From: an uncultured Bdellovibrionales bacterium
GTDB taxonomy: Bacteria; Patescibacteriota; Minisyncoccia; Moranbacterales; UBA9337
DNA: 64,000 nt
Reading direction: 5' to 3'
NCBI GenBank assembly: GCA_964605525.1
Contig: CAZSCV010000005.1
Span: forward strand, 39,256 to 103,255
Below, in pieces: positions 10,688-32,418 of the stretch. Both the position numbers and the translations under genes were made by a program. Within the stretch, counting starts at the first letter, position 1; each line of letters starts with the position of its first letter. Below the pieces are notes generated by a model. The model was not told the origin of the DNA. It saw only the letters and a program-made list of their open reading frames with translations, and ran no database searches.

Positions 10688-10698
10688 ATAAAAAAAGT

Positions 10699-12891: not shown

Positions 12892-12899
12892 TTTAATTT

Positions 12900-13649
12900 T
12901 TAAGACCGAAATTTGTTTAGCTTGTCTATAATATTTAACAGAAAGATTAGGACGGAACTTTTTAAATATTGCTTGTGAATAAGATTATGCTCGTTGTTAG
13001 ATTTTCCTTTCGTGCTCTGTGAATCAGGATGAATAAAGAAATTACATATAGTTTTATTAAAAAATACCGGAAATACGTTGTTTTTTAAGAGCCGTAACCA
13101 CATCTCATAGTCCATTGAGTTCTTGTATTTTTCATTGAAGTATCCATATTTTTTGAATATTTTTTTCTGAATGAAAACGGATTGATGAGGAATATAATTA
13201 GTTGCTAGCAAAAGCCAGAACTTAGCTTTATGATAAATTTTTCTATGCGGGATTATTCTACTAGCTCCTCTTATCTCATTGATAAATAATGCTTTTCCAT
13301 ATATCCAATAAGGATTTTTGTTTATTAATATAAAGGCGTTGATTTCCTTTAATGTATCCGGACTAAATAAACTATCATCGGAATGCAAGTGAATAATATA
13401 TTTTCCCGACGATTTATTTATTCCAATATTCATAGCATTTCCGATTCCTCGCGGCTTGAATTGAAATAGTTTAACTTTTTCTGGAAATTCTTTTTGATAA
13501 CTTTTTATGATAGAGGTGGTTTTGTCTGATGAAAATCCATCAATGAATATGTGTTCAAAATTTTTGAATGATTGATTTTTTATGGAATCTATGTTTCTCC
13601 GGATATACTTTTCGCTGTTGTATGTGCAAGTAATTATCGAAAATTTCAT
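12900..13649 (-). CDS. glycosyltransferase family 2
   Basis: N-terminus FSIITCTYNSEKYI...FIDGFSSDKT. Confidence 0.8.
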   Translation of the reverse strand: MKFSIITCTYNSEKYIRRNIDSIKNQSFKNFEHIFIDGFSSDKTTSIIKSYQKEFPEKVKLFQFKPRGIGNAMNIGINKSSGKYIIHLHSDDSLFSPDTLKEINAFILINKNPYWIYGKALFINEIRGASRIIPHRKIYHKAKFWLLLATNYIPHQSVFIQKKIFKKYGYFNEKYKNSMDYEMWLRLLKNNVFPVFFNKTICNFFIHPDSQSTKGKSNNEHNLIHKQYLKSSVLIFLLNIIDKLNKFRS

Positions 13650-14770
13650 AATAAAGTGGATTTAATTATATTAGCTGCAGTTTTTGTTTTTTGGATAATT
13701 CCCCACGAATCATTTTTTAAGTGCAAATTATTTTCAAAAACATTTTTTATTGCCTTGGTGATTTCTTTTGAATTAGCAGATTTGATTATGTATCCATTTT
13801 TTCCATCTTCAATAAGATCGGCGCTCGCTCCAGCTTCTTTCGTTGCTATAACGGGTAGATCACAAGCCATAGCTTCATTTATTACCAAGCCCCAAACTTC
13901 CTCGTAAGATGGAAGTATCAGTAAATTGGAAATGGAATAATATTTGTAAAGATCGTCATATTGGATGAAATCAGTAAAAATTATATCTTTTAAATGCATT
14001 TTTTTTATAATTCGTTTCATCTTTTCTTTCTCTCTCCCTCTTCCTATGATTAACAAGGAAACGTCAGGGTCATAAGTATGATAGTCTTTAAAGCCCTCAA
14101 GGAGGTTATAAATTCCTTTTCTTTCAATTAGCTGTCCGTTAAATAATATTATTTTTGAAGTTTTTATTCCTAGTTTATTTGTTATCAATTTTTTTTCTGT
14201 TCGAGTAAGGTTTTTTGTCTTTTCTTTAAAGTAGTCTATGTCAATAGAATTGAAGATTATTTCAATGTTCTTAGGGTTAACTCCGAGCGAAATGATGTAA
14301 TCACGCGCTCTTGTTCCGTAGACTACAAATTTATCCGTATTTTTAAATAAATATTTCACAAGAGGAGAAAATATTGTTCTTCTCCAACTCGGTTCATATT
14401 TAGTACTTCCTGACCAAAGAATGAATTCTTTTTTGTTCTTGCGTGCCCACCAGTTTGCTGCGTAAGCAGCAAAATGATCCCAGCCGAAACATATTATTTT
14501 ATCTGGATTATTATGACTAAGCGCACTCAGTATGTTTGGGTTTATAAAGAAAGTAAAGAGATCTTTTTTTCCAATTCTGATGGCAAAATTTTTTAGAATT
14601 TCATAATCAAATCTGATGTTAAAATCTTTCCAATATCTATTTTTGTCACTTTTGCTCAGGAAAAAAACTTTAAGTGTGCTTTCGTTATTGTGATAATGTT
14701 TATTTAACTCATTGAATAAATGAATTCTTGCTGGGCTTATTATGTTATGTAATACGAGTATTTTCTTCAT
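13646..14770 (-). CDS. glycosyltransferase family 4 (GT-B)
   Basis: C-terminal EX7E-type region SYEEVWGLVINEAMACDLPVIAT. Confidence 0.7.
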   Translation of the reverse strand: MKKILVLHNIISPARIHLFNELNKHYHNNESTLKVFFLSKSDKNRYWKDFNIRFDYEILKNFAIRIGKKDLFTFFINPNILSALSHNNPDKIICFGWDHFAAYAANWWARKNKKEFILWSGSTKYEPSWRRTIFSPLVKYLFKNTDKFVVYGTRARDYIISLGVNPKNIEIIFNSIDIDYFKEKTKNLTRTEKKLITNKLGIKTSKIILFNGQLIERKGIYNLLEGFKDYHTYDPDVSLLIIGRGREKEKMKRIIKKMHLKDIIFTDFIQYDDLYKYYSISNLLILPSYEEVWGLVINEAMACDLPVIATKEAGASADLIEDGKNGYIIKSANSKEITKAIKNVFENNLHLKNDSWGIIQKTKTAANIIKSTLL

Positions 14771-14806
14771 TTTTTTGATGTAATTATGAAAAATGTTTAG
14801 AAGCGG

Positions 14807-15970
14807 TTATTTGTAGATATTTTCTAGCTTGGAACAAACTTTGTCTATGGAAAATTTAATCGCAATCATATTTTTTGAATTTATGGATAGTTTTTTCTTT
14901 AAATCGGAATCATTTAGGATAGTTAATATTTTATCTGAAAATTCAGTTTTATTTTTTAGTTCCAATTCAAAGCCTGCTTTATGTGTTTCAATTTCTGGAA
15001 CATTGCAGTTTTTTGAGATGATCTGGGGGATGCCAATGGCGGCGACCTCCAAAACTGTCATAGGTAGACCTTCGTTTCTGGATGTGAAAATAAAAATATC
15101 ACACGATTTTATCGTTTCGAGTTTTTCTTTTCCGGTTAGTATTCCAGTAAAAACAACGTTGTTTTGCAAATCTAGTTCAATTGCCATTTTTTTTAATTTT
15201 TCTTTTTCTCCTTCATCGGGACCGATAATAAGATAGGTGAATTTTGTTTTGTATTTTAGGGAAGATAGAATTTCTATTGATATATCCACTCCTTTGATAT
15301 ATTGCAATCTTCCGATATATGCGATGATTTTATTTTCTTTCGGAAAATTGTATTTTTTACTTAGATTGATTTTTTTGATGTTTTCAAATTCTTCAAGGTG
15401 GAGACCATTGGGAATGATAATAGTTTTATTCTCAAATTTTTTGTTTATTGAAATTATTTCACTTTTTTCATTTTCCGTCAGGGCAATAATGTTCTTTGAG
15501 TTTTTTAGTATGGTTGTAAAAATATCTAAAAAAATCTTTTTTATGAATTTAAATTTGGCCTCTTGTCGAACCAAGGAAAGAGTGCCGTGAGGTTGAATAA
15601 TGAAGGGAATATTATGTTTTTTGCAAAAATGGGCAGTAATGATGTTTTGTAAAGTAAAAAAATCATGGCAATGAACTACATCAAAATTTCGTATATTATT
15701 TTTAGCCCAAAAATAAAATCCAATTGGTAAGTACCCGTTGCAATTTTTGGCTAGCCAATTACTGATGTTTCTGAAGCGGATAATTTTTATTCCGTTAACA
15801 TCTTCTTGAAGTTTTAAGATTCTATTTTTTTTATCAAGTGTGTCTGTTGTGACCACGGTAACTTTGTTTTTGCGGGCGGTTAATTCTTTGGAAATATCGA
15901 AACAAACTTTAACTGGTCCGCCGAAGCCGTAGGCTGGAATAAAATATGGAATAACTTGAAGTATTTTCAT
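14807..15970 (-). CDS. glycosyltransferase family 4 (GT-B)
   Basis: RNEGLPMTVLEVAAIGIPQI motif. Confidence 0.7.
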   Translation of the reverse strand: MKILQVIPYFIPAYGFGGPVKVCFDISKELTARKNKVTVVTTDTLDKKNRILKLQEDVNGIKIIRFRNISNWLAKNCNGYLPIGFYFWAKNNIRNFDVVHCHDFFTLQNIITAHFCKKHNIPFIIQPHGTLSLVRQEAKFKFIKKIFLDIFTTILKNSKNIIALTENEKSEIISINKKFENKTIIIPNGLHLEEFENIKKINLSKKYNFPKENKIIAYIGRLQYIKGVDISIEILSSLKYKTKFTYLIIGPDEGEKEKLKKMAIELDLQNNVVFTGILTGKEKLETIKSCDIFIFTSRNEGLPMTVLEVAAIGIPQIISKNCNVPEIETHKAGFELELKNKTEFSDKILTILNDSDLKKKLSINSKNMIAIKFSIDKVCSKLENIYK

Positions 15971-17466
15971 TTGGTTTTTATAAACGAGTATTCTTCTTTG
16001 GAAGATGAAATGGCAAAAATTTTATAGTTTGCTTTGTTGAGTTTTTGTATCGCATCTCTTGTTTTTTGGGCAGATATAGAAGAAAAGCGATGATGAAATT
16101 CAATTAATATCTGCTTGATATCAAAGTTATTTTCAATTATGTCATCAATAATTTCATATTCAGAGCCCTCGATATCCATTTTTAGAATGTCAATTTTATT
16201 GTGACCCAATTCTTTCATTATTGTTGTCAGATTTTTTACCTTAACTATTATTGGACTGTTTGCATGGTCTTTGCGTACAATACTGTGTGAAATGTGATTT
16301 GGGTTTTTCGGGGGAAACAGCTCGACAAATCCATTTTGTGCGGATAATCCATAATCAAAATATTGAAAATTATTCGGAAGATGTTGTTTCTTCAACCAAC
16401 TTATTGATTTTGGAGTAGGGTCAAAGGCAAAAACCTTACATCCATATTTTGAAATAATGTCTAAATCAAATGAAATATCCTCTCCTATTCCAAACGAATA
16501 AATAATGCTTTCGCTGTGTATATTTTTAGGGGAAATAGTCCAACCTCCATATTTTTTCGATCCAATAAAATCACCGTGAATGTTTTTTTGAACGAAAAAA
16601 AACACTTCTTTACCTAAAGCAACTTTTGCTAGGTATCTGATTTTCCAAAGAAGTAGTTTTAATTTTTCCACAAAGAAATATTTATTTTTTTTTATCTTAC
16701 TTAAGGCTTCATAGATCGTAGTTATCTTGTAATAATTGAATTTATGCAAGAATAATGATGCTGGATATTTCCCCCCGTATTTTTTAGCTAGCCTCAGTTC
16801 ATCTTGAAATTGTTTTTTGTTGACACTGCCACTTTTGCTGTTTGGATAATATCTGAAATTCGCCAGATAATTATCAATAACTCCGGCTGGATATTTTTGA
16901 CCGATTCTAAGCCAAAATTCATAATCCATACACAGATGCTCATTTTCATCAAAAAAACCCCTCTTGGCGTGAATTTCGCGTTTCCAGAACGTTGCGGGTT
17001 GGGAGATGAAATTTTCTGTCAGGAGTTTTGCATAACTGTATTTTCTAAGAAGAAAGTTTTTGTACCATGTTATGGGCTTCCTTATTTCTTCATCATTCTT
17101 GTTGATAATTTTGCATTTGCCATAGACCCAAAATTTTTCCGGATTTTTCTTGAAAAAATCGGCGACTTTTCGGAGCGCGCTTGGCTTGTAGGTATCATCG
17201 GAATTGAGATAGGCGACAATGTCTCCGGTAGCCATTTTGAGTCCCTTGTTGATGGCATCAGATTGTCCATTGTCTTTTTCGGATTTCCAAATGATGTGGT
17301 CGGAATATTTTTTCAAAATTTCAATTGTTCCATCGGTTGATCCTCCGTCCATAATGATATATTCAAGATTCGGATAATCTTGCTTGAGCACGCTCAAAAT
17401 AGTCCGTTCAATAAATTCGGCTTGATTGTATGATGGGGTAATAATTGAAATTTTAGGATTGTTCAT
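15967..17466 (-). CDS. bifunctional glycosyltransferase family 2 / FkbM-family methyltransferase fusion
   Basis: N-terminal [14 protein letters not shown]...[10 protein letters not shown] (GT2) and C-terminal [11 protein letters not shown]...[16 protein letters not shown] (FkbM). Confidence 0.7.
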
Positions 17467-18388
17467 AATTTTTCAGAAACCATTGGTAGGTATCTTTGAT
17501 TCCTTGATTGAGTTCAATTTTGTGCTTCCAATTGAGACTGTGCAATTTGGAAACATCCAGAAGTTTTCTTGGCGTGCCATCCGGTTTCGATGTGTCATTT
17601 TTTATTTCTCCTTCAAATCCGACTATTCGCTTGACTATTTCGGCTAATTCTCGAATGGAAATATCCTCCCCGGTTCCAATGTTTACGATTTCATTTTCGT
17701 TGTAATTTTCCATTAAAAAAACGCAAGCGTCAGCCAAATCATCAACGTGCAAAAATTCTCTTTTCGGGGAGCCCGTTCCCCAAATCAATACTTCTTTTTG
17801 ATTATTGATTTTCGCTTCGTGAAATTTTCGGAGTAGGGCAGGGAGAACATGAGATGAATTCAAATCAAAATTATCATTCGGTCCGTACAGGTTTGTTGGC
17901 ATTACGGAAATATATTTTGTGCCATATTGTTTGTTATATGACTGGCACATTTTAATTCCGGAGATTTTGGCAACAGCGTAGGCTTCATTTGTTCTTTCCA
18001 GCGGTCCGGTCAAAAGATATTCTTCTTTGATTGGTTGGGGACATTCGCGCGGATAAATGCAAGAGCTTCCGAGAAAAAGAAGTTTTTTGACTTTGTTTAG
18101 ATATGCATTGTGAATAATATTGTTTTGTATTTGCAGATTTTGAAAAATGAAATCGGCGGGATAGGTATCGTTTTCCAATATTCCGCCAACTCTCGCAGCT
18201 GCCAGAAAAACATATTCCGGTTTTTCTGTTTCAAAGAATTTTTTTACTTCCTGCCAGTCGAGCAGATCTAATTCTTTGTGTGTTTTCAAAACGAGATTGT
18301 TAAATCCGTTTGATTTGAGATTGCGAATAATCGCTGAACCGACAAGTCCATTATGCCCCGCGATATATATTTTAGAATTCTTTTCCAT
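17453..18388 (-). CDS. fcl: GDP-L-fucose synthase (GDP-4-keto-6-deoxymannose 3,5-epimerase/4-reductase)
   Basis: N-terminus [19 protein letters not shown]. Adjacent to gmd. Confidence 0.85.
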
Positions 18389-19975: not shown

Positions 19976-20335
19976 TTATTCCTTGGTTGCTCGAATAGCA
20001 ACCGGATATGCATTAGTTCCAGGTGTACATCCGGAAACATAAAAATATACCGTAAGTCCTTCTGCTTGTGCAACTTCCATGGCGATGGACATGCGGTCAC
20101 CATTAGTGCTCACTGTTCCATCCAGATTTATTAATTGAATGTCGATGTATGTTGCTGATCCGCAGCCGTCGGGATTGGTTAGGACTGATAATGGTTCCAC
20201 ACGAAAAATATCGTCACTTACGTAATAAGTTTGACCGATTAAAGTCGGTCCGATCCAGCCAGCACCGAAAGTCGTATTTGCTAAAAGTAAAAATGGCAAC
20301 ACAACAAGTAGAAACAGGGGGGTTGTTTTTTTCAT
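19976..20335 (-). CDS. small secreted protein (signal peptide, 2 Cys), function unknown
   Basis: N-terminus MKKTTPLFLLVVLPFLLLANTTFG. 4-nt overlap with the upstream FN3 gene. Higher GC than the genome background. Confidence 0.5.
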   Translation of the reverse strand: MKKTTPLFLLVVLPFLLLANTTFGAGWIGPTLIGQTYYVSDDIFRVEPLSVLTNPDGCGSATYIDIQLINLDGTVSTNGDRMSIAMEVAQAEGLTVYFYVSGCTPGTNAYPVAIRATKE

Positions 20336-20970
20336 TGGATACTCCTTTTCTTTTTTAATAGGATTATTCTTGTTGCGGATCCTTTTACAATCCGCGATGT
20401 TCCATCAATCATTACAACCGTAAACATTACGGACTTTCCGTAATATCCGGTTGCATCATATGGAGATACTGCGAAGAAGTATCTTCCGTCGGCGAGGCTC
20501 AAAGTCGAGAGGTCGAGCGACGTTGTCGCTCCGACATCAATTTCGTTGGTGGTGCCTCCTTTGACGGTGTCATAGAATACTGAGTATCCTGCGACGTCAC
20601 CAGCCCCCGCTGTCCAACTCAGGATTGTTCCCGTGGTGATGATGGGAGTGGAGGGACTTTTGAGACCGAAATTGATGTAATACGGGACAGCGTGAGCGTC
20701 AGTCGCTGCATCTCCCGTTCCGAATGTAAAAGTGTTAACACCTTCCGTGAGCGCAGAGGTTTTGAATTCCCCGCTACAAACTCCGGAAGTATCGGTGAAT
20801 GTGAAAGTATATATGAGTACTTGTTCATGATATACCCTTACGGTATCGTCGACTATATTACTGCAGTCGACAGATGTTCGAATCGTTGCTTCTTCGGCGA
20901 TTACTGTTCCAGTCCAAAAAAACAACAAGAAAAACCATAAAAATTGAAAAATCAAAAATCGTCTCTTCAT
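20332..20970 (-). CDS. secreted protein with a fibronectin type III-like domain
   Basis: Signal peptide, then an FN3-like signature (W..G..v.GY.vfyd....ttsLdLstLsladGrYfFaVspyDatG). Strong SD (gggagg) upstream. Confidence 0.5.
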   Translation of the reverse strand: MKRRFLIFQFLWFFLLFFWTGTVIAEEATIRTSVDCSNIVDDTVRVYHEQVLIYTFTFTDTSGVCSGEFKTSALTEGVNTFTFGTGDAATDAHAVPYYINFGLKSPSTPIITTGTILSWTAGAGDVAGYSVFYDTVKGGTTNEIDVGATTSLDLSTLSLADGRYFFAVSPYDATGYYGKSVMFTVVMIDGTSRIVKGSATRIILLKKKRSIQ

Positions 20971-21222: not shown

Positions 21223-22378
21223 ATGAAAGATATGAAGATAATCGGATTGGAAGATGTTTTGAAAAAGGCGAAAAAATATGCCGCTACGGATGTTCCGATT
21301 CTCATCACTGGAGAGCCGGGAGTGGGGAAGGAAGTTGTGGCGGAATTTATTCACAGGAATAGTTTGCGTGCGGAAAGAGTTTTCAATCCGCTTAACTGTG
21401 GGGCCGCTAATGGCCTCGTGGACAGCGAACTTTTCGGACACAGAAAGGGCTCTTTTACGGATGCTCGCTTTGATCGCCCGGGACGTTTGATGGCATCTGC
21501 TGGCGGGACGGTTTTTTTGGACGAGATTGGCGATATGCCGACTTCCGTTCAAGCAAAAATCTTGCGGTTTTTGAACGGCAGAGGCGAGATTCAGCAAATC
21601 GGGGCGGACCGTCCCGTATATGTTGAAACGCGCATAATTTGCGCAACAAATCAGTTGCTCCGAAAAATGGTTTCAGAAAAAACGTTTCGGAGAGATTTGT
21701 ATAGTCGGATTTCCGGGTTTGAAATTCACATTCCGTCGCTTCGCGAGCGCAGGGATGAGATTCCAACTTTTCGTGGAACATTTTTTTGAGTATTTCACTG
21801 AGAAATATCAAAAAAAATGGTGTCGCGATTTCATTATCCCTCGTCTTACAGAGCTGGCGATGGAAATGTCATGGCCGGGGAATGTCAGGGAATTGATGGG
21901 TTGGATCGAGAAGTTTGTTGTTCTTGAAGATCTTGAGACAGCCTGTTGTTCTAGTAAAAAAGAAATAAAGATCATCAGGAGTGTTCCTGATGATGCAATG
22001 GGAAAATGCATTATAATTCCGGAGAAAGAGTTTCCCCTTTTTCCCGAGGAGGTTGGTTTTGAAAAAATTCCGGTTGAAGGTGGTTTTGTGGATGGGGAAT
22101 GCTTTGCACCTAATTGTGCAAGCGGGGATTTTCAGCCGTTGTCATTGAGTTTTAATCCGTTTGTTCTCGATAATTTCCGTTTTTTGGAAATGGATGAACC
22201 TCAAAAAAAAGAAGCTTTGAAAAAAGCTCTTGAAAAAAATAATGGGGTTGTAACGGCGGCTGGAAGGGATTTGGGCTTGCCCGAATCTTCGGCTAGCTAT
22301 TTCGTAAAAAAATTGGGGCTTATTGAGTATGCAAGGGAACTCAAAAAAGCCGCAAAAAAATCGGAAAAATCCGCTTGA
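21223..22378 (+). pseudogene. sigma-54-dependent transcriptional activator (AAA+ bEBP, PspF-like, no sensor domain), disrupted by a +1 frameshift near 21768
   Basis: Walker A GEPGVGKE, GAFTGA-loop variant GSFTDA and RRDLYSRI in frame 1. WPGNVREL and a C-terminal Fis-type HTH in frame 2 (ORF 21719..22378). Removing one A in ccaactttt restores EIPLFVEHFFEYF. Confidence 0.75.
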
Positions 22379-22553: not shown

Positions 22554-23126
22554 ATGGATAATTTTCTGACAATTATATATGGTTCAAAACAAACGGTTTT
22601 TACCAGCAAAGAAATCGCTATTTTAATCGGGGAAAAAAATGCCGATAAACTCAAGTCAAAGTTGTCCTATTATGTGAAAACCGGAAAATTGATCCGGCTT
22701 CGTCGTGGAATTTTCTCAAAAAAAGATGATTATGACAAAAATGAACTGGCTGTCAGAATTTTTACTCCGGCATATGTGAGTTTTGAAACGGTTTTAGCAA
22801 AAGAAGGCGTGATATTTCAATATTATGAAACAATTTTTGCAGCCAGCTACCTTTCGCGGAATCTGAAATTCAGGGAAAATAAATTTACGTTTCGAAAACT
22901 CAAAAGTGAGATATTGATTAATCAGCAAGGATTAATAAATCGAGGGACGTATTTTGAGGCATCAAAAGAGCGAGCTTTTTTGGATATGTTGTATTTGTTT
23001 GGAAGCTGTCATTTTGATAATCTTCGAAATATCAATTGGAATACTTGTTTTGATATTGTCGGTATATATAAAAACAAAATGCTGGAAAAAAGACTTAAAA
23101 ATTATTTTGAAAAATATGCTAAATAA
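22554..23126 (+). CDS. AbiEi-like antitoxin/regulator (type IV TA, putative)
   Basis: 190 aa, directly upstream of and overlapping the AbiEii-like gene. Its own TTGACA-N16-TAAACT promoter lies at ~22492-22520. GC is at genome background, unlike the surrounding island. Confidence 0.45.
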   Translation: MDNFLTIIYGSKQTVFTSKEIAILIGEKNADKLKSKLSYYVKTGKLIRLRRGIFSKKDDYDKNELAVRIFTPAYVSFETVLAKEGVIFQYYETIFAASYLSRNLKFRENKFTFRKLKSEILINQQGLINRGTYFEASKERAFLDMLYLFGSCHFDNLRNINWNTCFDIVGIYKNKMLEKRLKNYFEKYAK

Positions 23127-23808
23127 AGAAAAACACAGACTGGTTATGGCGCAAATATTAAAAGATATTTATTCTGATATCTCTATTGCATCTCTGTTGG
23201 GTTTTAAGGGTGGTACGGCAGCATATTCATTTTATGAATTGCCGAGATTTTCTGTTGATTTGGATTTTGATTTATTGGATGACTCTGAATCAAACAGGAA
23301 TTTGATATTCGAAAAAATAAAAAATATTATTTCAAAATACGGTGAAATCAAGGACAAACAACAAAAATTTGCGACTATATTTTTTGCTCTTTCATATGAA
23401 TCAGGTGAGCATCAAATAAAGGTTGAAATAAATATGAGAAAAACCGGTGCCAGTTATGAAATGAAAAATTATTTCGGCATACCGGTTTTGGCAAGTACCA
23501 AAGAGTCTATGTTTTCGGCAAAACTAGTGGCACTTTTGAATCGCAAGGAATTTGCGGCGCGGGATCTTTTTGATGTGTATTATTTTCTCAAAAACAATTG
23601 GGGGACTGATAATAATGTTTTTGAATCATATAATATTTCGTCTGAAAAAGAATATATCAAAAAGTGCGTTTCTTTTGTTGAAAACGTTCCGGAGAATACT
23701 TTATTGAAAAATCTCGGAGAGCTTATTGATGAAAAGCAAAAAGAATTTGTCAAAACAAAAATAAAAGACGAGGTAATTTTTATGTTAAAGGCTCGTTGGA
23801 ATATTTAA
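23116..23808 (+). CDS. AbiEii/AbiGii-family nucleotidyltransferase toxin (DUF1814)
   Basis: LLGFKGGTAAYSFYELPRFSVDLDFDLL motif. Start is the in-frame ATG at 23116; an alternative is 23146. Confidence 0.7.
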   Translation: MLNKEKHRLVMAQILKDIYSDISIASLLGFKGGTAAYSFYELPRFSVDLDFDLLDDSESNRNLIFEKIKNIISKYGEIKDKQQKFATIFFALSYESGEHQIKVEINMRKTGASYEMKNYFGIPVLASTKESMFSAKLVALLNRKEFAARDLFDVYYFLKNNWGTDNNVFESYNISSEKEYIKKCVSFVENVPENTLLKNLGELIDEKQKEFVKTKIKDEVIFMLKARWNI

Positions 23809-24517: not shown

Positions 24518-24561
24518 GAAAAATAAAAAACCCCGCCAAGCGCTCGTGGCGCATGGCGGGG
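24518..24561 (-). terminator. rho-independent terminator for the lipoprotein gene
   Basis: Hairpin ccccgccaagcgctcgtggcgcatggcgggg followed on the minus strand by a T-run. Confidence 0.65.
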
Positions 24562-24568
24562 GCAAAGG

Positions 24569-25042
24569 TTATTCTAAATAGACTACTTCTATCTCATTTG
24601 AATGATCACTTATGTATACCAAGCGGTGTTCAAATGGATAATACGCTATTACTTTGTTAGTGAAGTAGTATTTTTTGATTCCCGGAACTGTTTGGATTTT
24701 TATTTTTATCCATGGAGACCTCACACCGGAAACCTCCCTCTTGGAAACTATAAAAATCCGATCATAATTTCCGCTTTGGGTGCCGTAGGATATTATATAT
24801 CCCAGTATCGTTTCTCCGTATCCCTCTTCGGCATACGAGAAATTTTCAATAGACGTATCTATTAATATGTTATCAATAAATCGTTCTTTTCTTTTATTAT
24901 CATCCGGTGTATCCCATGCGAAAGTTAGCGAAACTTCTTTTTCTAAATTTCTTTCGACAACAAGATGTGACTGCGACGTGCAAGCTGCCAGTGGCAACAA
25001 TATCGACAACAAAAATAAAACAGATAAGAGATGTTTCTTCAT
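24569..25042 (-). CDS. lipoprotein, function unknown
   Basis: Signal peptide with lipobox LAAC. Confidence 0.5.
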   Translation of the reverse strand: MKKHLLSVLFLLSILLPLAACTSQSHLVVERNLEKEVSLTFAWDTPDDNKRKERFIDNILIDTSIENFSYAEEGYGETILGYIISYGTQSGNYDRIFIVSKREVSGVRSPWIKIKIQTVPGIKKYYFTNKVIAYYPFEHRLVYISDHSNEIEVVYLE

Positions 25043-25054
25043 TATAATACCTCA

Positions 25055-25996
25055 TTATTTTTCAGTTTTGGGTTTGAAATACGGATTTGGAAATCCGTAT
25101 TTAATTTCCGTTGACGGACCTGAGATCTCACCGCTTGAGAGGTAGAGAATGCAGGCGATATAAAAAACGATATCGCGCTGGTTTTTCCATTGGTGTACTG
25201 TTGTAGTTATGACAAGTGACTTTGCGGGATTTTCCGGTGTGGCAGTCAGACCCACATCGATTACGTGGTCATACTTCCGGCTCTCGGTGCCGTACAAGAT
25301 TTTGTAGCCGGCAAGCTTCTCCTCTTCCAGATTTTTATCCCACACCAATTTTATTTCTGGGGTCCGGATTATGACATTTCCCTTCTTGTCTTTTTCCAAT
25401 GACACGAATTTCGCGTCCTTTTCCTTTTCGGTTTTATTTTTATACCGGATAAAGAAATATGGACGTCGGATATCCGAGTCGTCGCCATCGGAAATTCCGT
25501 CATTGTCGGAATCAGGGTCGATGATGTTTGGAATGTTGTCTTCATCGAAGTCGATTTTGTTTTCGACTCGATCAATTCCCCAAGTTGCCAATTCTTCGCC
25601 GTCAGGAATCCCATCTTCATCGGAATCCGCTTTTTTTGGATCGGTTCCGATTTTTTGTTCGAAATCATCCGCCAACCCGTCCTTGTCGGAGTCGATTTGA
25701 TTTTCTCCGATTTGAAAAAGGATGATCTCCTCGGACGGAGGCATTTCCCTCCTGTCTTTGACAAATGAAACAGAAATGAAATTCGGCGCATCCAAATAGA
25801 GCGGAAGAGTGGAAACACTGACCTCGGTTAAATTTTCAACCGTGATTTTTTCCGAATAATCACGGGAATGCTTCCCGATTCGGATGATGTACTCCTTTAC
25901 GGTTATATCCGGCAATTTCGGCCAGATAATTTCGTATCCTAATGCAACGTCGGAACACGAAAAAACAAAGCAAAAAATCAGGAATACTTTTTTCAT
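25055..25996 (-). CDS. secreted calcium-binding protein with thrombospondin type-3-like DxDxDG repeats
   Basis: Signal peptide plus repeated DSDKDGLADD, DSDEDGIPDGEE, DEDNIPNIIDPDSDNDGISDGDDSD motifs. Confidence 0.55.
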   Translation of the reverse strand: MKKVFLIFCFVFSCSDVALGYEIIWPKLPDITVKEYIIRIGKHSRDYSEKITVENLTEVSVSTLPLYLDAPNFISVSFVKDRREMPPSEEIILFQIGENQIDSDKDGLADDFEQKIGTDPKKADSDEDGIPDGEELATWGIDRVENKIDFDEDNIPNIIDPDSDNDGISDGDDSDIRRPYFFIRYKNKTEKEKDAKFVSLEKDKKGNVIIRTPEIKLVWDKNLEEEKLAGYKILYGTESRKYDHVIDVGLTATPENPAKSLVITTTVHQWKNQRDIVFYIACILYLSSGEISGPSTEIKYGFPNPYFKPKTEK

Positions 25997-26139: not shown

Positions 26140-26179
26140 ATAAAAAAGGACTCATGCAAGGCAATGCTTGCATGAGTCC
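26140..26179 (-). terminator. strong rho-independent terminator for the 646-aa protein gene
   Basis: Perfect 13-bp stem ggactcatgcaag/cttgcatgagtcc followed on the minus strand by TTTTTTATTT. Confidence 0.8.
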
Positions 26180-26203
26180 TGTTGTGTCGGGTTTCCGACG
26201 TTA

Positions 26204-28144
26204 CTATTTCAAACAAGATAACAGTGAATGATCGGAAGAGTGATCGAATTCAAATTCGCTTACTCCTGCCATTCTGACAGTGCGATTTGTTCCAACCCCG
26301 TGGACTACTGAGATGATGGGATTGTCATATCCCTTCTCTTGCCACGAAAATTGGTGGAGCTTGTCCGTTTCGAATACATCACCATTTTTAGTTTTTGTAT
26401 CCAGAGACTCGGTTTCCCCTGTTGCCTCGACAAATACGAACGGTACTCCGTCGATGAGCATATGGTTTGAAAATGGATCTGTGATCACCCTTTCCGCCGG
26501 AATATTTTCCGCCTGCACTAACGTGACGGCATGACCTCGTCCGAAAAAGTTGAGGGTTCCGATGGCAACTGTGCTGGTGTCGCCGAGGACGGTGTTCTCG
26601 GCGGAAAAATAAAGCGTTGCCATGGCAATGGCATGTCCCTCGCAGTCTTCACCGCGATTGAGCATTGCCATTGGAAGTGTCATTGGAATTTCCTCGGGAC
26701 TGTTATTTCCGGACTTACTTCCATCAAACTTCTTGTCGGAAATATAGTCCAGATCTCGGGCCGAAAAATCGGAAATTTTTTGAAGTGCCTCTGGTTTAGT
26801 TGAGGCATCTCCGATGATTTCCTTGGCAAGTCTTTCAGTGGAGGGCGTTTTGACGATGTATGCCGCAAGATAGCTGTCGCCAAAATTACTATTTCCGTTG
26901 CCGGGATAGAGCGGTAAGACTTTCGCCCGGCGGTTTTCCTCGACTTGCTGTTGCGCAACAAGAATGTCGCGATATGTTATTGACTTGTCGCGTTTGGCGC
27001 CGAGTACAATTGGATCATCTTGACCCATTTTCGCCAAATAGGAAAACGGGATGATGATTGATTGTGTCGGGTCGAGTGACCCAAAAAAGAGCAGTTCATT
27101 GCGGGAATTCCGCAATGGAACTGCCACTTCGTCGTACCCGTCAACTTCGTGACCGTTTTTGTCGGTTTTTTTCCAGGCGACAACGGTCATATCGACAGGA
27201 AGGTCTGCTGAATACACAGGACGTGCATTTAGACCGCTTCCTGTAATCTCGATTTTTTTCGGATCAAGATATGCTCCATAAGCGGCAGCATATTGATTCG
27301 AAATCAGTCGCGTTGTTCGCTCCTGATCCCACTCGCCAGTCTCCCAATCGCAAAGATTAGTGAGGATATAGTAGGCAACTAGGAGAGATTCTTCCGGTTC
27401 TAGATTGGGCGTTCCTAATTCAACACTGGTTTTGTCCCGGCGCCCCTTGCCATTGGGGTGCAAAAATATATAGATGTCGCCCGAAAGGTCGATCCAGCGT
27501 GTTTCGCCGTCGGCGAATTGCCGATTGAAACCAGTAAGACCTTGCATTCCATCTGTTTCGAAAAACGGATTGGACATATAATAATCCGAGCCTTGAACAA
27601 GCGCGCCATTACTGCCGGAGAAATCTCCATATGGTACTGAAGAGAATGCCATCGAAAAATTTTCCCTTGCTACGATTTCCGTGTTCATTTTTCCCTCTCT
27701 TGCGATTCGAGAGGGGAGAACCCAGTCCATCGCTGTGGTTCGCGAAAGGTATTTCCTTGCCGCGTTGTACGCGGCAAAACTTACAGGATCATTCAGCTCC
27801 CGATTTTTTCCGTCGCCTTCGACAATAGAAATCGTGTCGCCGAGAGCGAACCTTCCATTGACGAAGTCAAGCCATGAAATCGTGATGGACTGGATGTGAA
27901 GATCTTTTTCGATGCTGGAATATGGGATGTGATACACCCCTCGATAGGGGTGATGGATTTTTGCTGCATTGGATACGGCATATTCGACCGCGAACCCTCC
28001 GCCGACAAAAAACGCAATTGTGAAAAATATCCCCAGCCATTTGAAAACAGATTTTGCAATTTGTTTTCTGGGTTGGAAATTACCGCTTGTTGTTCCGGAA
28101 ACATGCTTTGCTTCCGGCCAATTCAGTTTTTCCAGATAACTCAT
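26204..28144 (-). CDS. N-terminally membrane-anchored extracellular protein (646 aa) with a C-terminal transglutaminase-like Cys-His-Asp core
   Basis: TM helix WLGIFFTIAFFVGGGFAV near the N-terminus. Candidate C-terminal triad GEDCEGHAIAMATLYF ... GHAVTLV ...(18 aa)... DP. GC-rich. Confidence 0.45.
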   Translation of the reverse strand: MSYLEKLNWPEAKHVSGTTSGNFQPRKQIAKSVFKWLGIFFTIAFFVGGGFAVEYAVSNAAKIHHPYRGVYHIPYSSIEKDLHIQSITISWLDFVNGRFALGDTISIVEGDGKNRELNDPVSFAAYNAARKYLSRTTAMDWVLPSRIAREGKMNTEIVARENFSMAFSSVPYGDFSGSNGALVQGSDYYMSNPFFETDGMQGLTGFNRQFADGETRWIDLSGDIYIFLHPNGKGRRDKTSVELGTPNLEPEESLLVAYYILTNLCDWETGEWDQERTTRLISNQYAAAYGAYLDPKKIEITGSGLNARPVYSADLPVDMTVVAWKKTDKNGHEVDGYDEVAVPLRNSRNELLFFGSLDPTQSIIIPFSYLAKMGQDDPIVLGAKRDKSITYRDILVAQQQVEENRRAKVLPLYPGNGNSNFGDSYLAAYIVKTPSTERLAKEIIGDASTKPEALQKISDFSARDLDYISDKKFDGSKSGNNSPEEIPMTLPMAMLNRGEDCEGHAIAMATLYFSAENTVLGDTSTVAIGTLNFFGRGHAVTLVQAENIPAERVITDPFSNHMLIDGVPFVFVEATGETESLDTKTKNGDVFETDKLHQFSWQEKGYDNPIISVVHGVGTNRTVRMAGVSEFEFDHSSDHSLLSCLK

Positions 28145-28164
28145 TTTTTCCTCCTCCTTTTTTG

Positions 28165-28533
28165 TCAGGAAATTCCGCCGGATAATTCTCTGATTCTCCA
28201 GAAAACTCCCGGCATAGAAACTGCGTTCGTATATTCCTCAAGAAAATAGCTATATACCTTTCTTTCGGAGTTGAAGCGAACCTCAACGGTTCGGTGTTTT
28301 TTCTTTGCAAGTATTACGATACTTTTCAGTTCATAAGAACTCATATCACGATCATTGCATCTTGCGATGCAATCTTCTCCGATGCGGTACATATAGACAT
28401 CTACGTACGGAATCGGATCACTGCTTTCAAATTCTGTTGCATTATTTCCACCCTCTGATCGAACGGTGAATATCAGGAATACGCAAAATATCATCAGAAA
28501 ATCCACAAAACGGCGCAATAATGCTTCTCTCAT
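28165..28533 (-). CDS. ExbD/TolR-like single-pass membrane protein (putative)
   Basis: N-terminal TM helix with a conserved Asp (RRFVDFLMIFCVFLIF), then a ~90-aa domain patterned like the ExbD periplasmic domain. ATGA overlap with the upstream MotA/ExbB-like gene. Confidence 0.4.
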   Translation of the reverse strand: MREALLRRFVDFLMIFCVFLIFTVRSEGGNNATEFESSDPIPYVDVYMYRIGEDCIARCNDRDMSSYELKSIVILAKKKHRTVEVRFNSERKVYSYFLEEYTNAVSMPGVFWRIRELSGGIS

Positions 28534-29228
28534 AATGTTTTCTCCTTATTGAGTCGCAGAATCACGATAAAAGTTTTGAGCAGGATTTTTCTTTCCTCCT
28601 CCACTACGGTATTAAGGGTTAAAATTACCAATCCTCCGTACAATGCTAGAATAGTAGTATCCATTGCCAGATCGGCTCCAGCGAGCATTGAAGCAACCGA
28701 CGAACTTTTCTCATGGCATGCCAACTTGAACCCGACGAGCGTGCCAATTAAACCCAGTGCGGCAAGAATATAATCCAAATATTTCACCGCATTTGTGGAG
28801 CGAAGAAAAACTTCCTCGAAATAATTATCCAACCCATTCTTCACTTCATCCGACCAATTTCTTTGGTTGGCCAGAGAAAGCTTTTGAAAATGCTGAACAA
28901 GAATTGAATCGAAAAATTTCTTAGATAATGGAAGTTCTCCGCGTTGCAGGCTGGTGTCATTTGTGTATGCAATCATCCTCTCAATCAATATCGCTTCACT
29001 TTTTGTTGAAAAAAGTGTTGCGATTGATGAAATTATTCCAATCGCTATGATTGCCGAAATGGCAATCATTAGCGGATTGGAAAAATCCATTTTTTGAACA
29101 ATCGGCATTTTTGCCAGAAAAAACGTCAACAAAAATACCGCCATCATCGTTTGTAAATATTTCCAGATAAAAACGGTTGAATCTTTGATGGTTCTTGTTG
29201 TTTTTGTGATTTCCAAAGTTTTTTCCAT
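28530..29228 (-). CDS. MotA/TolQ/ExbB proton-channel family protein
   Basis: C-terminal TM pair with family signature LAALGLIGTLVGFKLA ... AMDTTILALYGGLV. Confidence 0.55.
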   Translation of the reverse strand: MEKTLEITKTTRTIKDSTVFIWKYLQTMMAVFLLTFFLAKMPIVQKMDFSNPLMIAISAIIAIGIISSIATLFSTKSEAILIERMIAYTNDTSLQRGELPLSKKFFDSILVQHFQKLSLANQRNWSDEVKNGLDNYFEEVFLRSTNAVKYLDYILAALGLIGTLVGFKLACHEKSSSVASMLAGADLAMDTTILALYGGLVILTLNTVVEEERKILLKTFIVILRLNKEKTL

Positions 29229-29393
29229 TTGCCTCTTCCTCCTCCATAGATTTGCGGGGATATCCCGCTAGTTCGATATTCAATTGTCAAATTACTACAA
29301 AACTTCGAAAATTCCGATTATTCGGACTTTTCTTGTATTTGCTTTAATTATCCATTTCTTGTGTTTTAAAGTCAAGCTTTTTTACGTTTTTAT

Positions 29394-29525: not shown

Positions 29526-30839
29526 ATGAATATTGCAATAATTGGTTCGGGTTATGTTGGGCTGGTCACTGGTGCGTGTCTAGCGGAATTTGGGCATCGG
29601 GTCATCTGCATGGATAAAGACAGCAGTAAAATCGAACGGCTTCGTAACGGCGAGATGCCCATTTACGAACCGGGATTGGATGCCTTGGTGGTCAAGAACG
29701 TCAAAGACGGCAGGTTGTCCTTCACCAGCAATATGGAAGAGAGCGTCAGTCAGGCCAAAGCTGTTTTTATCGCCGTGGGCACCCCCTCGTCCCGTCGTGG
29801 CGACGGCTATGCTGACTTGACCTATATTTATGCTGCAGCCAGGGATCTGGCCCCGTATTTAGGCAAATACACGGTGGTGGTTGATAAGAGCACCGTCCCG
29901 GTTGGCACAGCCAGACAGGTTGCGCGCGTCATAAGAGAGGCAAATCCCGCCGCCCAGTTTGATGTGGTTTCCAACCCGGAATTTTTACGGGAAGGCGCGG
30001 CAATCAATGATTTTATGCGTCCGGACCGGGTGGTCATCGGAATTGAGACGGAACGGGCCAGCGAGGTCATGAAAGAAATTTATAATCCTCTATACCTGAT
30101 CGCCACCCCATTTGTCTTAACCGGACTTGAAACCGCCGAACTGATCAAATACGCCTCAAATGCCTTCCTGTCGATGAAGATCTCGTTTATTAACGAGATG
30201 GCAAATGTGTGCGAGGTCTTGGGAGCGGATGTTATTGATCTGGCCAAAGCCGTTGGGCTTGATGGGCGCATTGGAAGGAAATTTTTACATCCCGGTCCCG
30301 GTTATGGTGGTTCCTGCTTTCCGAAAGATACATTGGCTTTGTTGCGAATTGCGCAGGAGAATGGAGTTCCAATTCGAACTGTCGCGGCAGCAGTTGAGAC
30401 TAATGCTGCTCAAAAAGCGGCGATGGTGAAAAAGATTCGTGACGCCCTCGGCGGTTCGGAGGCCGGCAAGACTATCGGAGTTCTTGGCTTGACTTTTAAG
30501 CCGGAAACGGATGATTTGCGAGATGCTCCGGCACTAACGATCTTGCCACCTCTTTTTGAAAAGGGGGCAAAAATTCAGGCGCACGATCCACAAGGAATGA
30601 CAGAGTGCGCCAAAATGTTTCCGGAATTTTCTTATGTTGGAGATGCGTACGAGGCAGCCGAGGGCGCGGATGTTCTCGTGCTGATGACAGAATGGAATCA
30701 GTATCGCGCGCTTGATTTGCAGGAGCTGAAATCCAGGATGAAAGCCTTGGTATTTGTTGACCTGCGCAATGTGTATAATCATAAGCAGGTGAAGGATGCC
30801 GGATTTACGTATGTTGGCGTAGGACGGGGAGGGTTGTAA
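29526..30839 (+). CDS. ugd: UDP-glucose 6-dehydrogenase
   Basis: MNIAIIGSGYVGLVTGACLAEFGHRV and the catalytic GGSCFPKD motif. The most GC-rich gene in the window by eye. Confidence 0.85.
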   Translation: MNIAIIGSGYVGLVTGACLAEFGHRVICMDKDSSKIERLRNGEMPIYEPGLDALVVKNVKDGRLSFTSNMEESVSQAKAVFIAVGTPSSRRGDGYADLTYIYAAARDLAPYLGKYTVVVDKSTVPVGTARQVARVIREANPAAQFDVVSNPEFLREGAAINDFMRPDRVVIGIETERASEVMKEIYNPLYLIATPFVLTGLETAELIKYASNAFLSMKISFINEMANVCEVLGADVIDLAKAVGLDGRIGRKFLHPGPGYGGSCFPKDTLALLRIAQENGVPIRTVAAAVETNAAQKAAMVKKIRDALGGSEAGKTIGVLGLTFKPETDDLRDAPALTILPPLFEKGAKIQAHDPQGMTECAKMFPEFSYVGDAYEAAEGADVLVLMTEWNQYRALDLQELKSRMKALVFVDLRNVYNHKQVKDAGFTYVGVGRGGL

Positions 30840-31140: not shown

Positions 31141-32418
31141 TTATCTTCCTATCCCTTTGTAAATCACTCCTTGCTTTTCAAAAGCTATTTTGTCGAGGCA
31201 GTTTTTGCCGTCGATTATGATTTTTATTTTGTGCTTTTTGAAAAGTTTCGGGTCGATTTCTTTGAACGCCTTGTGGTCGGTTACCAAGACAACTGCTTCA
31301 GATTTTTTCAGCAATTCCTCAATATTTTTAACAGTGGACATTTTCGGAAAATAGGGGTCAAAGATTTCCACTTTAGCTCTGTGTTTTTTGATTTCTTCAA
31401 TTACCTTGAGAGCGGGAGTTTCGCGCAAATCATCAACATTGGCTTTGTAAGAAAGTCCAAGAATTCCGATTTTGGTTCCGTTGAGAGGTTTTTTTATTTT
31501 GTTCAATTCCTCGTGCAGAAGCTCAACAGTATAAAGTGGCATTGAGTTGTTTATTTTTCTGGCTATTTTGAGGAATTCATGGTCAAAACCGGAAAGCTTG
31601 GCGCGCTCAATCAAATAATACGGATCAACCGGAATACAATGTCCGCCAACTCCGCAACTTGGCCAGTGAGCCATAAAAGAGAAGGGTTTGGTGGAAGCGC
31701 CAGTAATCACATCTTTGACATCAATCCCCATTTTGTCGAAAGATTTTGCCAGCTCGTTAACAAAAGCGATGTTAATGTCGCGGAAAGAATTTTCCACCAC
31801 TTTCACCGCTTCAGCTTCACGAATTGATTTCATCGGAAAAATTTCTGCGTCAATGATTGCTCGGTAAAAATTCAAGGCTTTGTCTAATCCTTGTTTGTCA
31901 AATGATCCAACTACGCGTGGAATGTTTGTTACGTTCCATTTCGGATCTCCAGGGTTGATTCGTTCCGGGCAATGCGCCAAAAAATAATCTTTTCCAACTT
32001 TGAATCCCGCTTCGGCAAACATCGGTTCAACTATTTCTTCACAAACGCCGGGATTGATAGTGGATTCAATGACAATCAGTTGTCCTTTTTTGAAATTGCG
32101 AACAATTGACGCAACTGCTCCGCGCACCGGACTCAGATCCGGAAAAAATAATTTATCAACAGGAGTGGGAACACAAACCAAAACAATGTCGGATTGTTTG
32201 ATTATTTTTTCATCAGTAGTAGCCGTGAGTTTCACGATAGGAAGATTTTTGTGCAAAAATTCTTCTTCAATGGGACTTTTTCCTGCTTGAATTTTTTTAA
32301 TTTTTTCTTTGTCCATATCTAGACCGAAGACCTCAAAACCTTTGAGCGCCGATTGGACGGCAAGAGGGAGCCCGACATAACCCAAACCGATGATGCAAAC
32401 CTTTGCTGTGTTTTTCAT
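31141..32418 (-). CDS. nucleotide-sugar dehydrogenase (UDP-N-acetyl-D-glucosamine/mannosamine 6-dehydrogenase family, TviB/WbpA-like)
   Basis: VCIIGLGYVGLPLAVQSALKGFEVFGLD. Length 425 aa. Confidence 0.75.
   Translation of the reverse strand: MKNTAKVCIIGLGYVGLPLAVQSALKGFEVFGLDMDKEKIKKIQAGKSPIEEEFLHKNLPIVKLTATTDEKIIKQSDIVLVCVPTPVDKLFFPDLSPVRGAVASIVRNFKKGQLIVIESTINPGVCEEIVEPMFAEAGFKVGKDYFLAHCPERINPGDPKWNVTNIPRVVGSFDKQGLDKALNFYRAIIDAEIFPMKSIREAEAVKVVENSFRDINIAFVNELAKSFDKMGIDVKDVITGASTKPFSFMAHWPSCGVGGHCIPVDPYYLIERAKLSGFDHEFLKIARKINNSMPLYTVELLHEELNKIKKPLNGTKIGILGLSYKANVDDLRETPALKVIEEIKKHRAKVEIFDPYFPKMSTVKNIEELLKKSEAVVLVTDHKAFKEIDPKLFKKHKIKIIIDGKNCLDKIAFEKQGVIYKGIGR

Follow-up and report, generated by a model that had tools for sequence, protein, structure and literature searches.

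The window analysed here is a stretch of 64,000 nucleotides (nt) on contig CAZSCV010000005.1 (assembly GCA_964605525.1, positions 39,256 to 103,255). Three consecutive genes on its minus strand encode a four-transmembrane (TM) protein of the MotA/ExbB/TolQ family (A subunit), an ExbD/TolR-type protein (B subunit) and a 646-residue protein that carries an N-terminal anchor and a C-terminal domain similar to the protease LapG. A fourth gene, encoding a secreted protein with TSP3 repeats, is conserved together with them. On balance, we lean towards the reading that these genes form a conserved envelope module of Patescibacteria, in which an ion-driven stator-type pair controls the anchored LapG-like protease. 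The features of the three-gene unit are as follows.

28530-29228, minus strand: A-subunit gene (MotA/ExbB-like), 232 residues, from the list of open reading frames (ORFs)
28165-28533, minus strand: B-subunit gene (ExbD/TolR-like), 122 residues, from the ORF list
26204-28144, minus strand: gene of the large N-anchored protein, 646 residues, from the ORF list
29347-29375, minus strand: sigma-70-like promoter candidate upstream of the operon, TTGACT-17-GATAAT, 10 of 12 matches in a consensus scan
26147-26180, minus strand: strong intrinsic terminator ending the three-gene operon, 14-bp stem with 7 GC pairs, then TTTTTTATTT

The A- and B-subunit genes overlap via ATGA, and the gene of the 646-residue protein starts 20 nt past the stop codon of the B-subunit gene. 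The three ORFs, the overlap and the gap are all present as the preliminary description of this DNA had given them. The sequence GGAGGAGG precedes the start of the A-subunit gene and AAGGAGGAGG precedes that of the large gene; the ribosome-binding sites of the operon are strong. The sigma-70-like site is regarded as a candidate only, because such sites occur region-wide at chance level. According to the promoter-like site, the ribosome-binding sites, the ATGA overlap, the 20-nt gap and the terminator, the three genes are predicted to be one operon.

The arrangement is rare and strictly kept. In an exhaustive profile search, only 13 proteins of the 646-residue family (clusters at 50% identity) were found among 1.84 billion representatives. 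They are annotated as hypothetical, and they belong to Patescibacteria where a taxon is named. A hidden Markov model (HMM) search of the ORFs found the genes of the A subunit, the B subunit and the large protein side by side on one strand, always in this order, at all loci whose flanks are long enough. The order is kept in 12 of 12 lineages with context, at 24-82% identity. The loci with the triplet are the window, L008, L013, L003/L014, L006/L015, L016, L017, L018 and L019/L020. Three of these (L016, L017 and L018) came from a genome scan, and L019/L020 were found starting from the MotA-like side, using a four-sequence alignment that reaches close relatives only. The relatives recovered from that side all carry the same triplet. 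The contig of L021 ends directly after the B-subunit gene. The triplet is retained even in P0018, P0020 and P0021, divergent members with 24-30% identity. The sole exception is P0022, a lipoprotein with a partial profile match (E 5e-5), which has neither an N-terminal TM segment nor a stator. When the neighbours at eight loci were clustered by BLAST, exactly four families were common to all of them, namely the A subunit, the B subunit, the large protein and the TSP3 protein. The recurrence of the triplet order in all related loci, down to 24% identity, indicates more than chance. The co-conservation in related genomes that the preliminary description had named as a check is thus strict in all 12 lineages with context.

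Two of these loci deserve a separate mention. L013 (CAZRJL010000012.1) has a 78%-identical module with its neighbours and was deposited as an 'uncultured Bdellovibrionales' metagenome-assembled genome; because all other taxon-named members are Patescibacteria, it is probably a mis-binned contig of the candidate phyla radiation (CPR). L022 (GCA_042571345.1, 7904-13716) is the most divergent stator-linked member. Its triplet is followed by a response regulator and a histidine kinase and, further downstream, by a surface protein of more than 1,400 residues, which has Calx-beta and DUF7948 domains and takes the place of the TSP3 protein. The Calx-beta protein may represent another Ca-binding partner or substrate; no [TAP]AA[GV] site of the kind cleaved by LapG-type proteases occurs in the 1,231 residues that could be searched.

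Family-level tests of the proteins used more distant orthologs from syntenic loci; a word-indexed homology search gave few relatives (6, 3 and 2 for the three window proteins, respectively). According to the Kyte-Doolittle hydropathy, the A subunit has four hydrophobic segments, at residues 25-45, 47-75, 151-172 and 187-210. Pfam MotA_ExbB (PF01618) matches six of seven A-subunit orthologs, with a best E-value of 1.7e-9; the window copy is not matched. The L006 ortholog scores 24.1 bits against a gathering cut-off of 22.9, and the L025 ortholog carries a precomputed MotA_ExbB match. In the comparison of the family profile with PDB sequences, the top ten matches are all MotA, TolQ or ExbB. The best are the MotA structures 6ykm (C. 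jejuni, E 1.9e-4) and 8gqy (E 7e-4), and TolQ and ExbB come next.

The alignment of the A subunit with E. coli ExbB/TolQ by hhalign (P 0.0012) pairs GLIGT163LVG with ExbB GLFGT148VWG, and T192 with ExbB T181. Both T163 and T192 are invariant in seven divergent orthologs. The corresponding residues, ExbB T148/T181 and TolQ T145/T178, are the essential ion-pathway threonines of the last two TM segments (PMC12905483). In the A subunit they lie within the motifs G159-L-I-G-T163-L-V-G166 in TM3 and A188-x-x-T191-T192 in TM4. The cytoplasmic loop consists of about 75 residues, with invariant S108, H113, K116, W125 and Y136, and the C-terminal tail has only about 22 residues. The four predicted TM segments and the cytoplasmic loop represent a MotA-like rather than an ExbB-like topology. 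Judged by its family, the first gene is therefore predicted to encode a very divergent four-TM subunit of the MotA/ExbB/TolQ family, and the earlier assignment of the 232-residue protein holds at this level through the Pfam matches of the orthologs and the PDB profile matches.

The B subunit has a single hydrophobic segment, at residues 3-28 by the Kyte-Doolittle method, which contains D11, and a small extracytoplasmic alpha/beta domain follows it. The top matches of the B-subunit profile in PDB are ExbD 7ajq_F (E 0.0044) and 6tyi_Y (E 0.041), and these alignments span the TM segment and nearly the whole periplasmic domain. By hhalign against E. coli ExbD/TolR (P 0.0014), D11 is aligned to ExbD D25, one of the two essential TM aspartates compared (ExbD D25 and TolR D23). 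F9 and D11 (codon at nt 28501-28503) are invariant in the family. No OmpA-type peptidoglycan-binding domain was found by the Pfam scan of the B subunit. Since its gene overlaps a bona fide MotA/ExbB-family gene, the second gene is accepted as a putative ExbD/TolR-type B subunit; the support is weaker than for the A subunit, but coherent. The earlier view of the 122-residue protein as ExbD-like with a conserved TM aspartate agrees with these results. Thus, the module keeps the channel residues that are essential in the Ton and Tol systems, the two threonines in the last two TM segments of the A subunit and the TM aspartate of the B subunit.

The third protein is organized as a cytoplasmic M-S-Y-L-E-K-x-x-W sequence, one TM segment, about 370 residues without recognisable relatives and the C-terminal LapG-like domain. 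Its features are located as follows.

27974-28060, minus strand: single N-terminal TM anchor, residues 29-57, from hydropathy
26255-26872, minus strand: C-terminal LapG/BTLCP-like cysteine protease domain of transglutaminase fold, residues about 425-630
26735-26737, minus strand: D470 of the 646-residue protein
26639-26647, minus strand: D500-C501-E502 of the 646-residue protein
26531-26533, minus strand: H538 of the 646-residue protein
26477-26479, minus strand: D556, at LapG-like spacing, not invariant
26426-26428, minus strand: E573 of E573-x-T575, a motif that is invariant

Residues 29-57 are the one hydrophobic segment by the Kyte-Doolittle method, in agreement with the single N-terminal anchor proposed before. 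The predicted topology is N-in and C-out, with the bulk of the protein extracytoplasmic. The N-terminal cytoplasmic YLEKxxW motif is conserved in the family, and the sequence of the TM segment is not. The AlphaFold2 model from a 6-sequence input had a pLDDT of 34 and was discarded; the 13-sequence alignment gave a pLDDT of 73 and a pTM of 0.74. The domain shows a transglutaminase-like fold, with the Cys nucleophile at the N-terminus of a helix and the His on a beta-strand.

The profile of the whole 646-residue protein matches no PDB sequence, whereas the profile of the C-terminal domain alone does. Two LapG structures come first (E 0.0011 and 0.003), and LapG proteases are the nearest relatives of the domain both by sequence and by structure. 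In the profile alignment, G-D-C-E-D/G-H-A of the family falls on G-D-C-E-D-Y/F-A of LapG, and Y-x-S-D470 falls on Y-V-E-D of LapG. Within the 13-member alignment D500, C501 and H538 are invariant, and E502 is found in 12 of 13. The Cys-to-His spacing is 37, the His-to-Asp spacing is 18, and D556 is followed by P557. The catalytic residues of LapG, which we take to be C135, H172 and D189 (cross-checked only via D111 and DvhG), presumably have spacings of 37 and 17, near those found here. The Ca ligand D111 of LapG corresponds to D470 of the 646-residue protein. In DvhG, a LapG-family protease with an N-terminal TM segment, the Ca2+ site is made up of D316 and E318 and the nucleophile is C317, and the enzyme is inactivated by D316A/E318A and by C317A (PMC13090378). 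Because the LapG structures match first and the D-C-E and D470 residues of the Ca site are kept, the domain is assigned as LapG/BTLCP-like with Ca2+-site residues, as far as profile and model allow. The guess of a transglutaminase-like cysteine protease in the preliminary description thus holds at the family level and is narrowed by this assignment. No BTLCP match was obtained in the Pfam scan of the 646-residue protein.

The fourth conserved gene lies downstream of the operon, in a separate unit with the following features.

25055-25996, minus strand: fourth co-conserved gene, secreted 313-residue TSP3/fn3 protein, Pfam TSP3_bac E 3.6e-9
24569-25042, minus strand: lipoprotein-like ORF, 157 residues, with the lipobox L-A-A-C at residues 18-21
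24534-24551, minus strand: terminator-like hairpin with a T-run, ending the TSP3/lipoprotein unit

The 313-residue protein consists of a signal peptide, an N-terminal beta domain, about four Ca-binding TSP3 repeats (DxDxDGxxDxxE) and a C-terminal fn3-like domain; the fn3 match was found in the L006 ortholog. The TSP3 proteins of the different loci are true orthologs with a common architecture. They adjoin the triplet in nine lineages, downstream in most of them and upstream in L016 and L017. The repeats weakly match CglD (NCBIfam E 3.5e-6, repeats only). The lipoprotein-like ORF starts 12 nt after the TSP3 gene and shares its transcription unit. Only the closest relatives have it; it lies outside the families common to all eight loci and is not part of the conserved core. 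The TSP3 protein and the lipoprotein had been described as lying directly downstream on the same strand; this is so, but the strong terminator at 26180-26147 separates both from the three-gene operon. The TSP3 protein is the prime candidate for a partner or substrate of the anchored protease.

In the reading that we favour, the A and B subunits would assemble into an ion-driven stator-type complex, A5B2 by analogy, and this complex would couple membrane energisation to the anchored protease. The coupling might be transmitted through the TM segment of the protease with its cytoplasmic YLEKxxW motif, or through the external domain of the B subunit. It would control the conformation of the protease, its reach across the wall or its activity. 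The Ca2+-dependent protease would then cleave a surface protein or adhesin, by analogy with LapG releasing LapA, with the TSP3 protein as the likeliest candidate. In this way, surface attachment or the remodelling of the envelope would be tied to the energy state of the cell. A physical coupling of stator and protease, with Ton/Tol-like energising, is what we infer from operon structure and synteny only. Two observations speak for it. Cytoplasmic features are conserved on both sides, namely the YLEKxxW motif and the loop of the A subunit, and the only TM-less homolog, P0022, is also the one without a stator.

Several results weigh against this reading. Scanned singly against Pfam and NCBIfam, the three window proteins had no relevant match. 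Of the HMM searches suggested in the preliminary description (MotA_ExbB, ExbD and Transglut_core), that with MotA_ExbB gave significant matches in the orthologs, but the window's own three proteins have no Pfam match. Even so, none of the three results that the preliminary description had listed as refuting it was obtained. Pfam ExbD (PF02472) matches two of seven B-subunit orthologs below threshold (best 16.5 bits, E 0.009, against a cut-off of 25.4). In two distant loci, L022 and L024, the gene at the B position was missed by the family HMM; its product is still single-pass, with an Asp at the start of the TM segment. Transglut_core reaches significance in the outgroup P0022 alone (E 1.2e-8), and the in-family matches (E 0.03-0.1) are sub-threshold and cover the N-lobe and the Cys helix only. 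The third catalytic residue is ambiguous. Most of the 13 members, but not all, have D or N at the position of D556 or a D one residue before it, whereas E573 is invariant, and the alignments with the LapG profile and Transglut_core stop short of this region. HvyA functions with an Asn as its third triad residue. Of the Cys...His...(18 residues)...Asp-Pro core first noticed, the residues are thus present, but D556 is not invariant and E573 is. The LapG-type site [TAP]AA[GV] was found in none of the TSP3 orthologs, the other neighbours or the L022 Calx-beta protein. Finally, the synteny may arise from a common process in which the proteins do not touch.

The remaining point concerns the anchor. 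Neither the SHLS motif nor S-x3-H occurs within the first 90 residues of the 15 family members searched by regular expression. In TonB and TolA, the SHLS motif of the N-terminal TM segment is Ser-x3-His-x6-Leu-x3-Ser (PMC12905483). The Pfam scans of the 646-residue protein detected no TonB_C or TolA-III domain. With the motif missing, and with a C-terminal domain of the transglutaminase/LapG fold in place of a TonB_C/TolA domain, the 646-residue protein was rejected as a TonB/TolA homologue.

The missing SHLS-type motif leaves room for a static regulator. The A/B pair would then be a membrane scaffold or sensor that responds to membrane potential or ions and sequesters or releases the protease in a LapD-like manner, with no rotary or mechanical work. 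According to the literature, LapG-family proteases are sequestered at the inner membrane by a partner receptor, and the module has no LapD- or DvhD-like cyclic di-GMP (c-di-GMP) receptor, so that something else must control the protease. Against this, the two threonines and the TM aspartate are invariant across very divergent sequences, which points to selection on ion flux itself, and the characterised members of the superfamily all turn ion flow into movement (literature). We regard a static regulator as improbable, though worth keeping in mind.

A control of envelope polymers is about equally improbable. The C-terminal domain would be a transglutaminase that cross-links surface proteins (e.g. 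the TSP3/fn3 protein), or a HvyA-like BTLCP that modulates capsule or surface-glycan assembly, and the stator would supply energy or positioning within a glycan-export locus. The module does lie among glycan genes (UDP-glucose dehydrogenases, glycosyltransferases GT2 and GT4, Wzy_C, flippase, DUF2304, DUF2142 and GtrA), and the LapG-type cleavage motif is absent from the neighbours. In the literature, HvyA is a BTLCP in a capsule export locus that inhibits capsulation and requires its catalytic triad, and BTLCP domains may catalyse transamidation besides proteolysis. However, the glycan genes vary by locus and only the four module genes are constant, and the closest relatives by sequence and structure are LapG proteases.

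A lower chance still is given to the view that there is no functional coupling, and that the stator-like pair performs another envelope task (uptake or wall homeostasis) and merely shares an operon with the protease. The association is known from genomes only, ExbB-family proteins in monoderms have an unknown role, and many non-flagellar homologs are of unknown function (literature). Such a view has to account for adjacency and order in all 12 lineages at 24-82% identity, with genes that overlap or are tightly spaced. It also has to account for a stator that is missing exactly where the protease homolog lacks its TM anchor, and for the triplet in all relatives that were found from the MotA-like side.

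A Zorya-like anti-phage defence, with a MotAB-type sensor of envelope perturbation and an effector, is very unlikely. Zorya is a precedent for 5:2 stators in defence (literature), and an AbiE toxin-antitoxin pair is encoded close to the module in both the window and L003. However, PADLOC gave no match for nine proteins including orthologs, which led us to reject a defence system. The effector domain is extracytoplasmic, the A subunit lacks a long ZorA-type tail (about 22 residues here), the B subunit lacks a peptidoglycan-binding domain, AbiE is not conserved beside the module, and a fold search against viral structures returned nothing significant.

The favoured reading, an ion-driven pair controlling an anchored LapG-like protease, can be compared with known systems. 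MotA/ExbB-type stators power flagella, Ton uptake, Tol-Pal, gliding/type IX secretion (T9SS) and Zorya defence. The gene logic of TonB-ExbB-ExbD and TolA-TolQ-TolR is also seen here, with A, B and then an N-anchored protein projecting from the membrane; the B subunit is short and ExbD/TolR-like with no OmpA domain, and the Thr/Thr/Asp ion-pathway residues are kept. Unlike in these systems, the A subunit has four TM segments like MotA, not three. The partner has no SHLS motif, Pro-rich or helical spacer, or TonB_C/TolA_C domain and carries an enzyme instead, and there is no outer membrane, TonB-dependent receptor or Pal/TolB. With MotAB/PomAB the module shares a best match to MotA, four TM segments, the TM2-TM3 cytoplasmic loop and translationally coupled A/B genes. 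It differs in that no flagellar genes were seen, the loop and tail of the A subunit are much shorter, and the B subunit has no OmpA-like domain. The preliminary description had noted no outer-membrane receptor, flagellar or Tol-Pal context, and none of these genes is indeed present among the annotated neighbours.

For the protease, which resembles the BTLCP proteases of Peptidase C93, the closest comparison is with LapG/LapD-LapA and DvhG. The module has no LapD/DvhD c-di-GMP receptor, no type I secretion system and no giant RTX-type adhesin with a TAAG site; neither a LapD-type receptor nor a type I secretion system was found in any locus examined. The protease domain is fused here behind about 370 residues of unknown extracellular domains and is encoded with a MotA/ExbD-type pair, in an organism without an outer membrane. 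The module was thus rejected as a canonical Lap system, having no receptor, type I secretion system or TAAG site, though its enzymology is Lap-like. HvyA of Caulobacter is likewise an extracytoplasmic BTLCP inside a surface-polysaccharide locus, and its tolerance of Asn fits the D/N variation observed here. In contrast, HvyA is small, soluble and periplasmic, has no stator, and serves the cell-cycle control of capsulation in a diderm. GldLM/T9SS, AglRQS-Glt (with the TSP3 lipoprotein CglD) and Zorya are precedents for MotA/ExbB-type motors that drive envelope or defence outputs via a membrane-anchored partner. None of them has a protease output, and all but some MotAB stators are found in diderms. 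No PADLOC or NCBIfam family match linked the module to other 5:2-motor systems.

What ExbB/ExbD-like proteins do where there is no outer membrane has been acknowledged as unsettled (PMC9389320). In reviews, and in a phylogenomic study of MotAB homologs from 2025, non-flagellar "generic ion transporters" of unknown function are recognised, as are ExbB-like proteins of monoderms; neither CPR bacteria nor a protease partner is mentioned. Full-text searches for BTLCP with ExbD, and for CPR with proton motive force and ExbD, gave nothing; the coverage is incomplete and this is not proof. The statement that the combination is not a described system is borne out in the searchable literature. These comparisons suggest that a 5:2-type stator has a new output here, and that a LapG-type protease is under a new controller.

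The window carries genes for SecA, SecD, MurC, CysS, an LCP transferase and a CtpA-like protease. Proteins identical or nearly so to those of the window are on record under "Parcubacteria group bacterium Athens0714_25" and "Candidatus Moranbacteria". It is chromosomal DNA of a peptidoglycan-making CPR/Patescibacteria bacterium of the Parcubacteria/Moranbacteria type. No rRNA, tRNA or other Rfam family was found in the window. The GC content is 0.27-0.33 in the first 16 kb and is raised over about 19-32 kb. It reaches 0.43-0.47 over about 24-32 kb, which covers the module and the UDP-glucose dehydrogenase genes, versus about 0.38-0.40 to the right and elsewhere. Glycan-biosynthesis genes are usually found near the module and differ between loci. 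The window is collinear with L008 over the genes for a Wzy-like protein, GT4, Dus, two UDP-glucose dehydrogenases, the module, GT2 and further on DUF2304. The large protein of L008 is 82% identical to that of the window, and the only differences between the two loci are an inserted AbiE pair and a split sigma-54 activator in the window. Since the locus is collinear with this glycan-biosynthesis region, the module is not an obvious or recently acquired island. The compositionally distinct island proposed at first is accordingly weak, despite the raised GC content.

Further genes near the module were recorded. Two genes of the UDP-glucose/GDP-mannose dehydrogenase family lie immediately upstream of the module and are convergent. 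The pair also flanks the module in L008 and L013, and a single copy is found in L006. A sigma-54-type enhancer-binding protein is split over two overlapping ORFs, of 188 residues (Sigma54_activat, E 1.5e-54) and of 219 residues (AAA_lid_14 and HTH_8). The split activator lacks an N-terminal sensor domain and thus resembles a gene that was frameshifted or truncated; it is split identically in the independent assembly L001. Homologs are found near the module in L013 (a 500-residue ORF) and L017. A scan for sigma-54 promoters (TGGCAC-N5-TTGC, up to two mismatches) gave chance-level counts and no site upstream of either transcription unit, and by this test the activator fragments are not linked to the module. 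The GT2 gene of the module and the secreted fn3-like proteins are separated by a toxin-antitoxin pair, AbiEi-like/AbiEii (PF08843). AbiEii is also found near the module in L003. The pair is missing at the matching position in the collinear L008, and thus looks like an insertion. Two small secreted proteins of 212 and 119 residues have fn3-like features and no Pfam match; their genes adjoin a DUF2304 gene. In L003 and L008, too, the surroundings of the module include homologs of the 212-residue protein and of DUF2304. The positions are as follows.

29526-30839, plus strand: UDP-glucose/GDP-mannose dehydrogenase-family gene
31141-32418, minus strand: UDP-glucose/GDP-mannose dehydrogenase-family gene
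21223-21789, plus strand: sigma-54 activator fragment, 188 residues
21719-22378, plus strand: sigma-54 activator fragment, 219 residues
22554-23126 and 22954-23808, plus strand: AbiEi-like/AbiEii pair
20332-20970, minus strand: fn3-like secreted protein, 212 residues
19976-20335, minus strand: fn3-like secreted protein, 119 residues
19470-19817: DUF2304 gene
54240-55991, plus strand: SecD homolog, 583 residues

Residues 137-246 (approximately) of the SecD homolog match PrsA/parvulin-type peptidyl-prolyl isomerases (NCBIfam E 4.5e-15), which suggests a SecD homolog with an isomerase domain inserted in an extracytoplasmic loop. In L005 (positions 10666-17857 of a JGI contig, module of P0005), an inverted duplication of the DUF2142-GT2 pair is located downstream of the module. 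It is either an assembly artefact or a real rearrangement.

The importance of the module is limited by the rarity of the family (13 clusters) and by a coupling that is so far genomic only. It is nevertheless a compact and strictly conserved test case for stators in CPR bacteria. Both halves are directly assayable, because the presumptive output enzyme has a well-understood relative in LapG. We propose tentatively, and as a rather doubtful step beyond the module itself, that the motor may mechanically actuate or gate the extracellular Ca2+-dependent LapG-like protease. This would be a new functional class of 5:2 motor, acting with no outer membrane, and the membrane energy state rather than c-di-GMP would set the release or processing of adhesins, and hence the attachment of epibiotic CPR bacteria to hosts or surfaces. 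If the coupling is true, the 5:2-motor family would gain a new output class, and LapG-type proteolysis would have a c-di-GMP-independent control. The module would also give a handle on surface regulation in ultra-small epibiotic bacteria.

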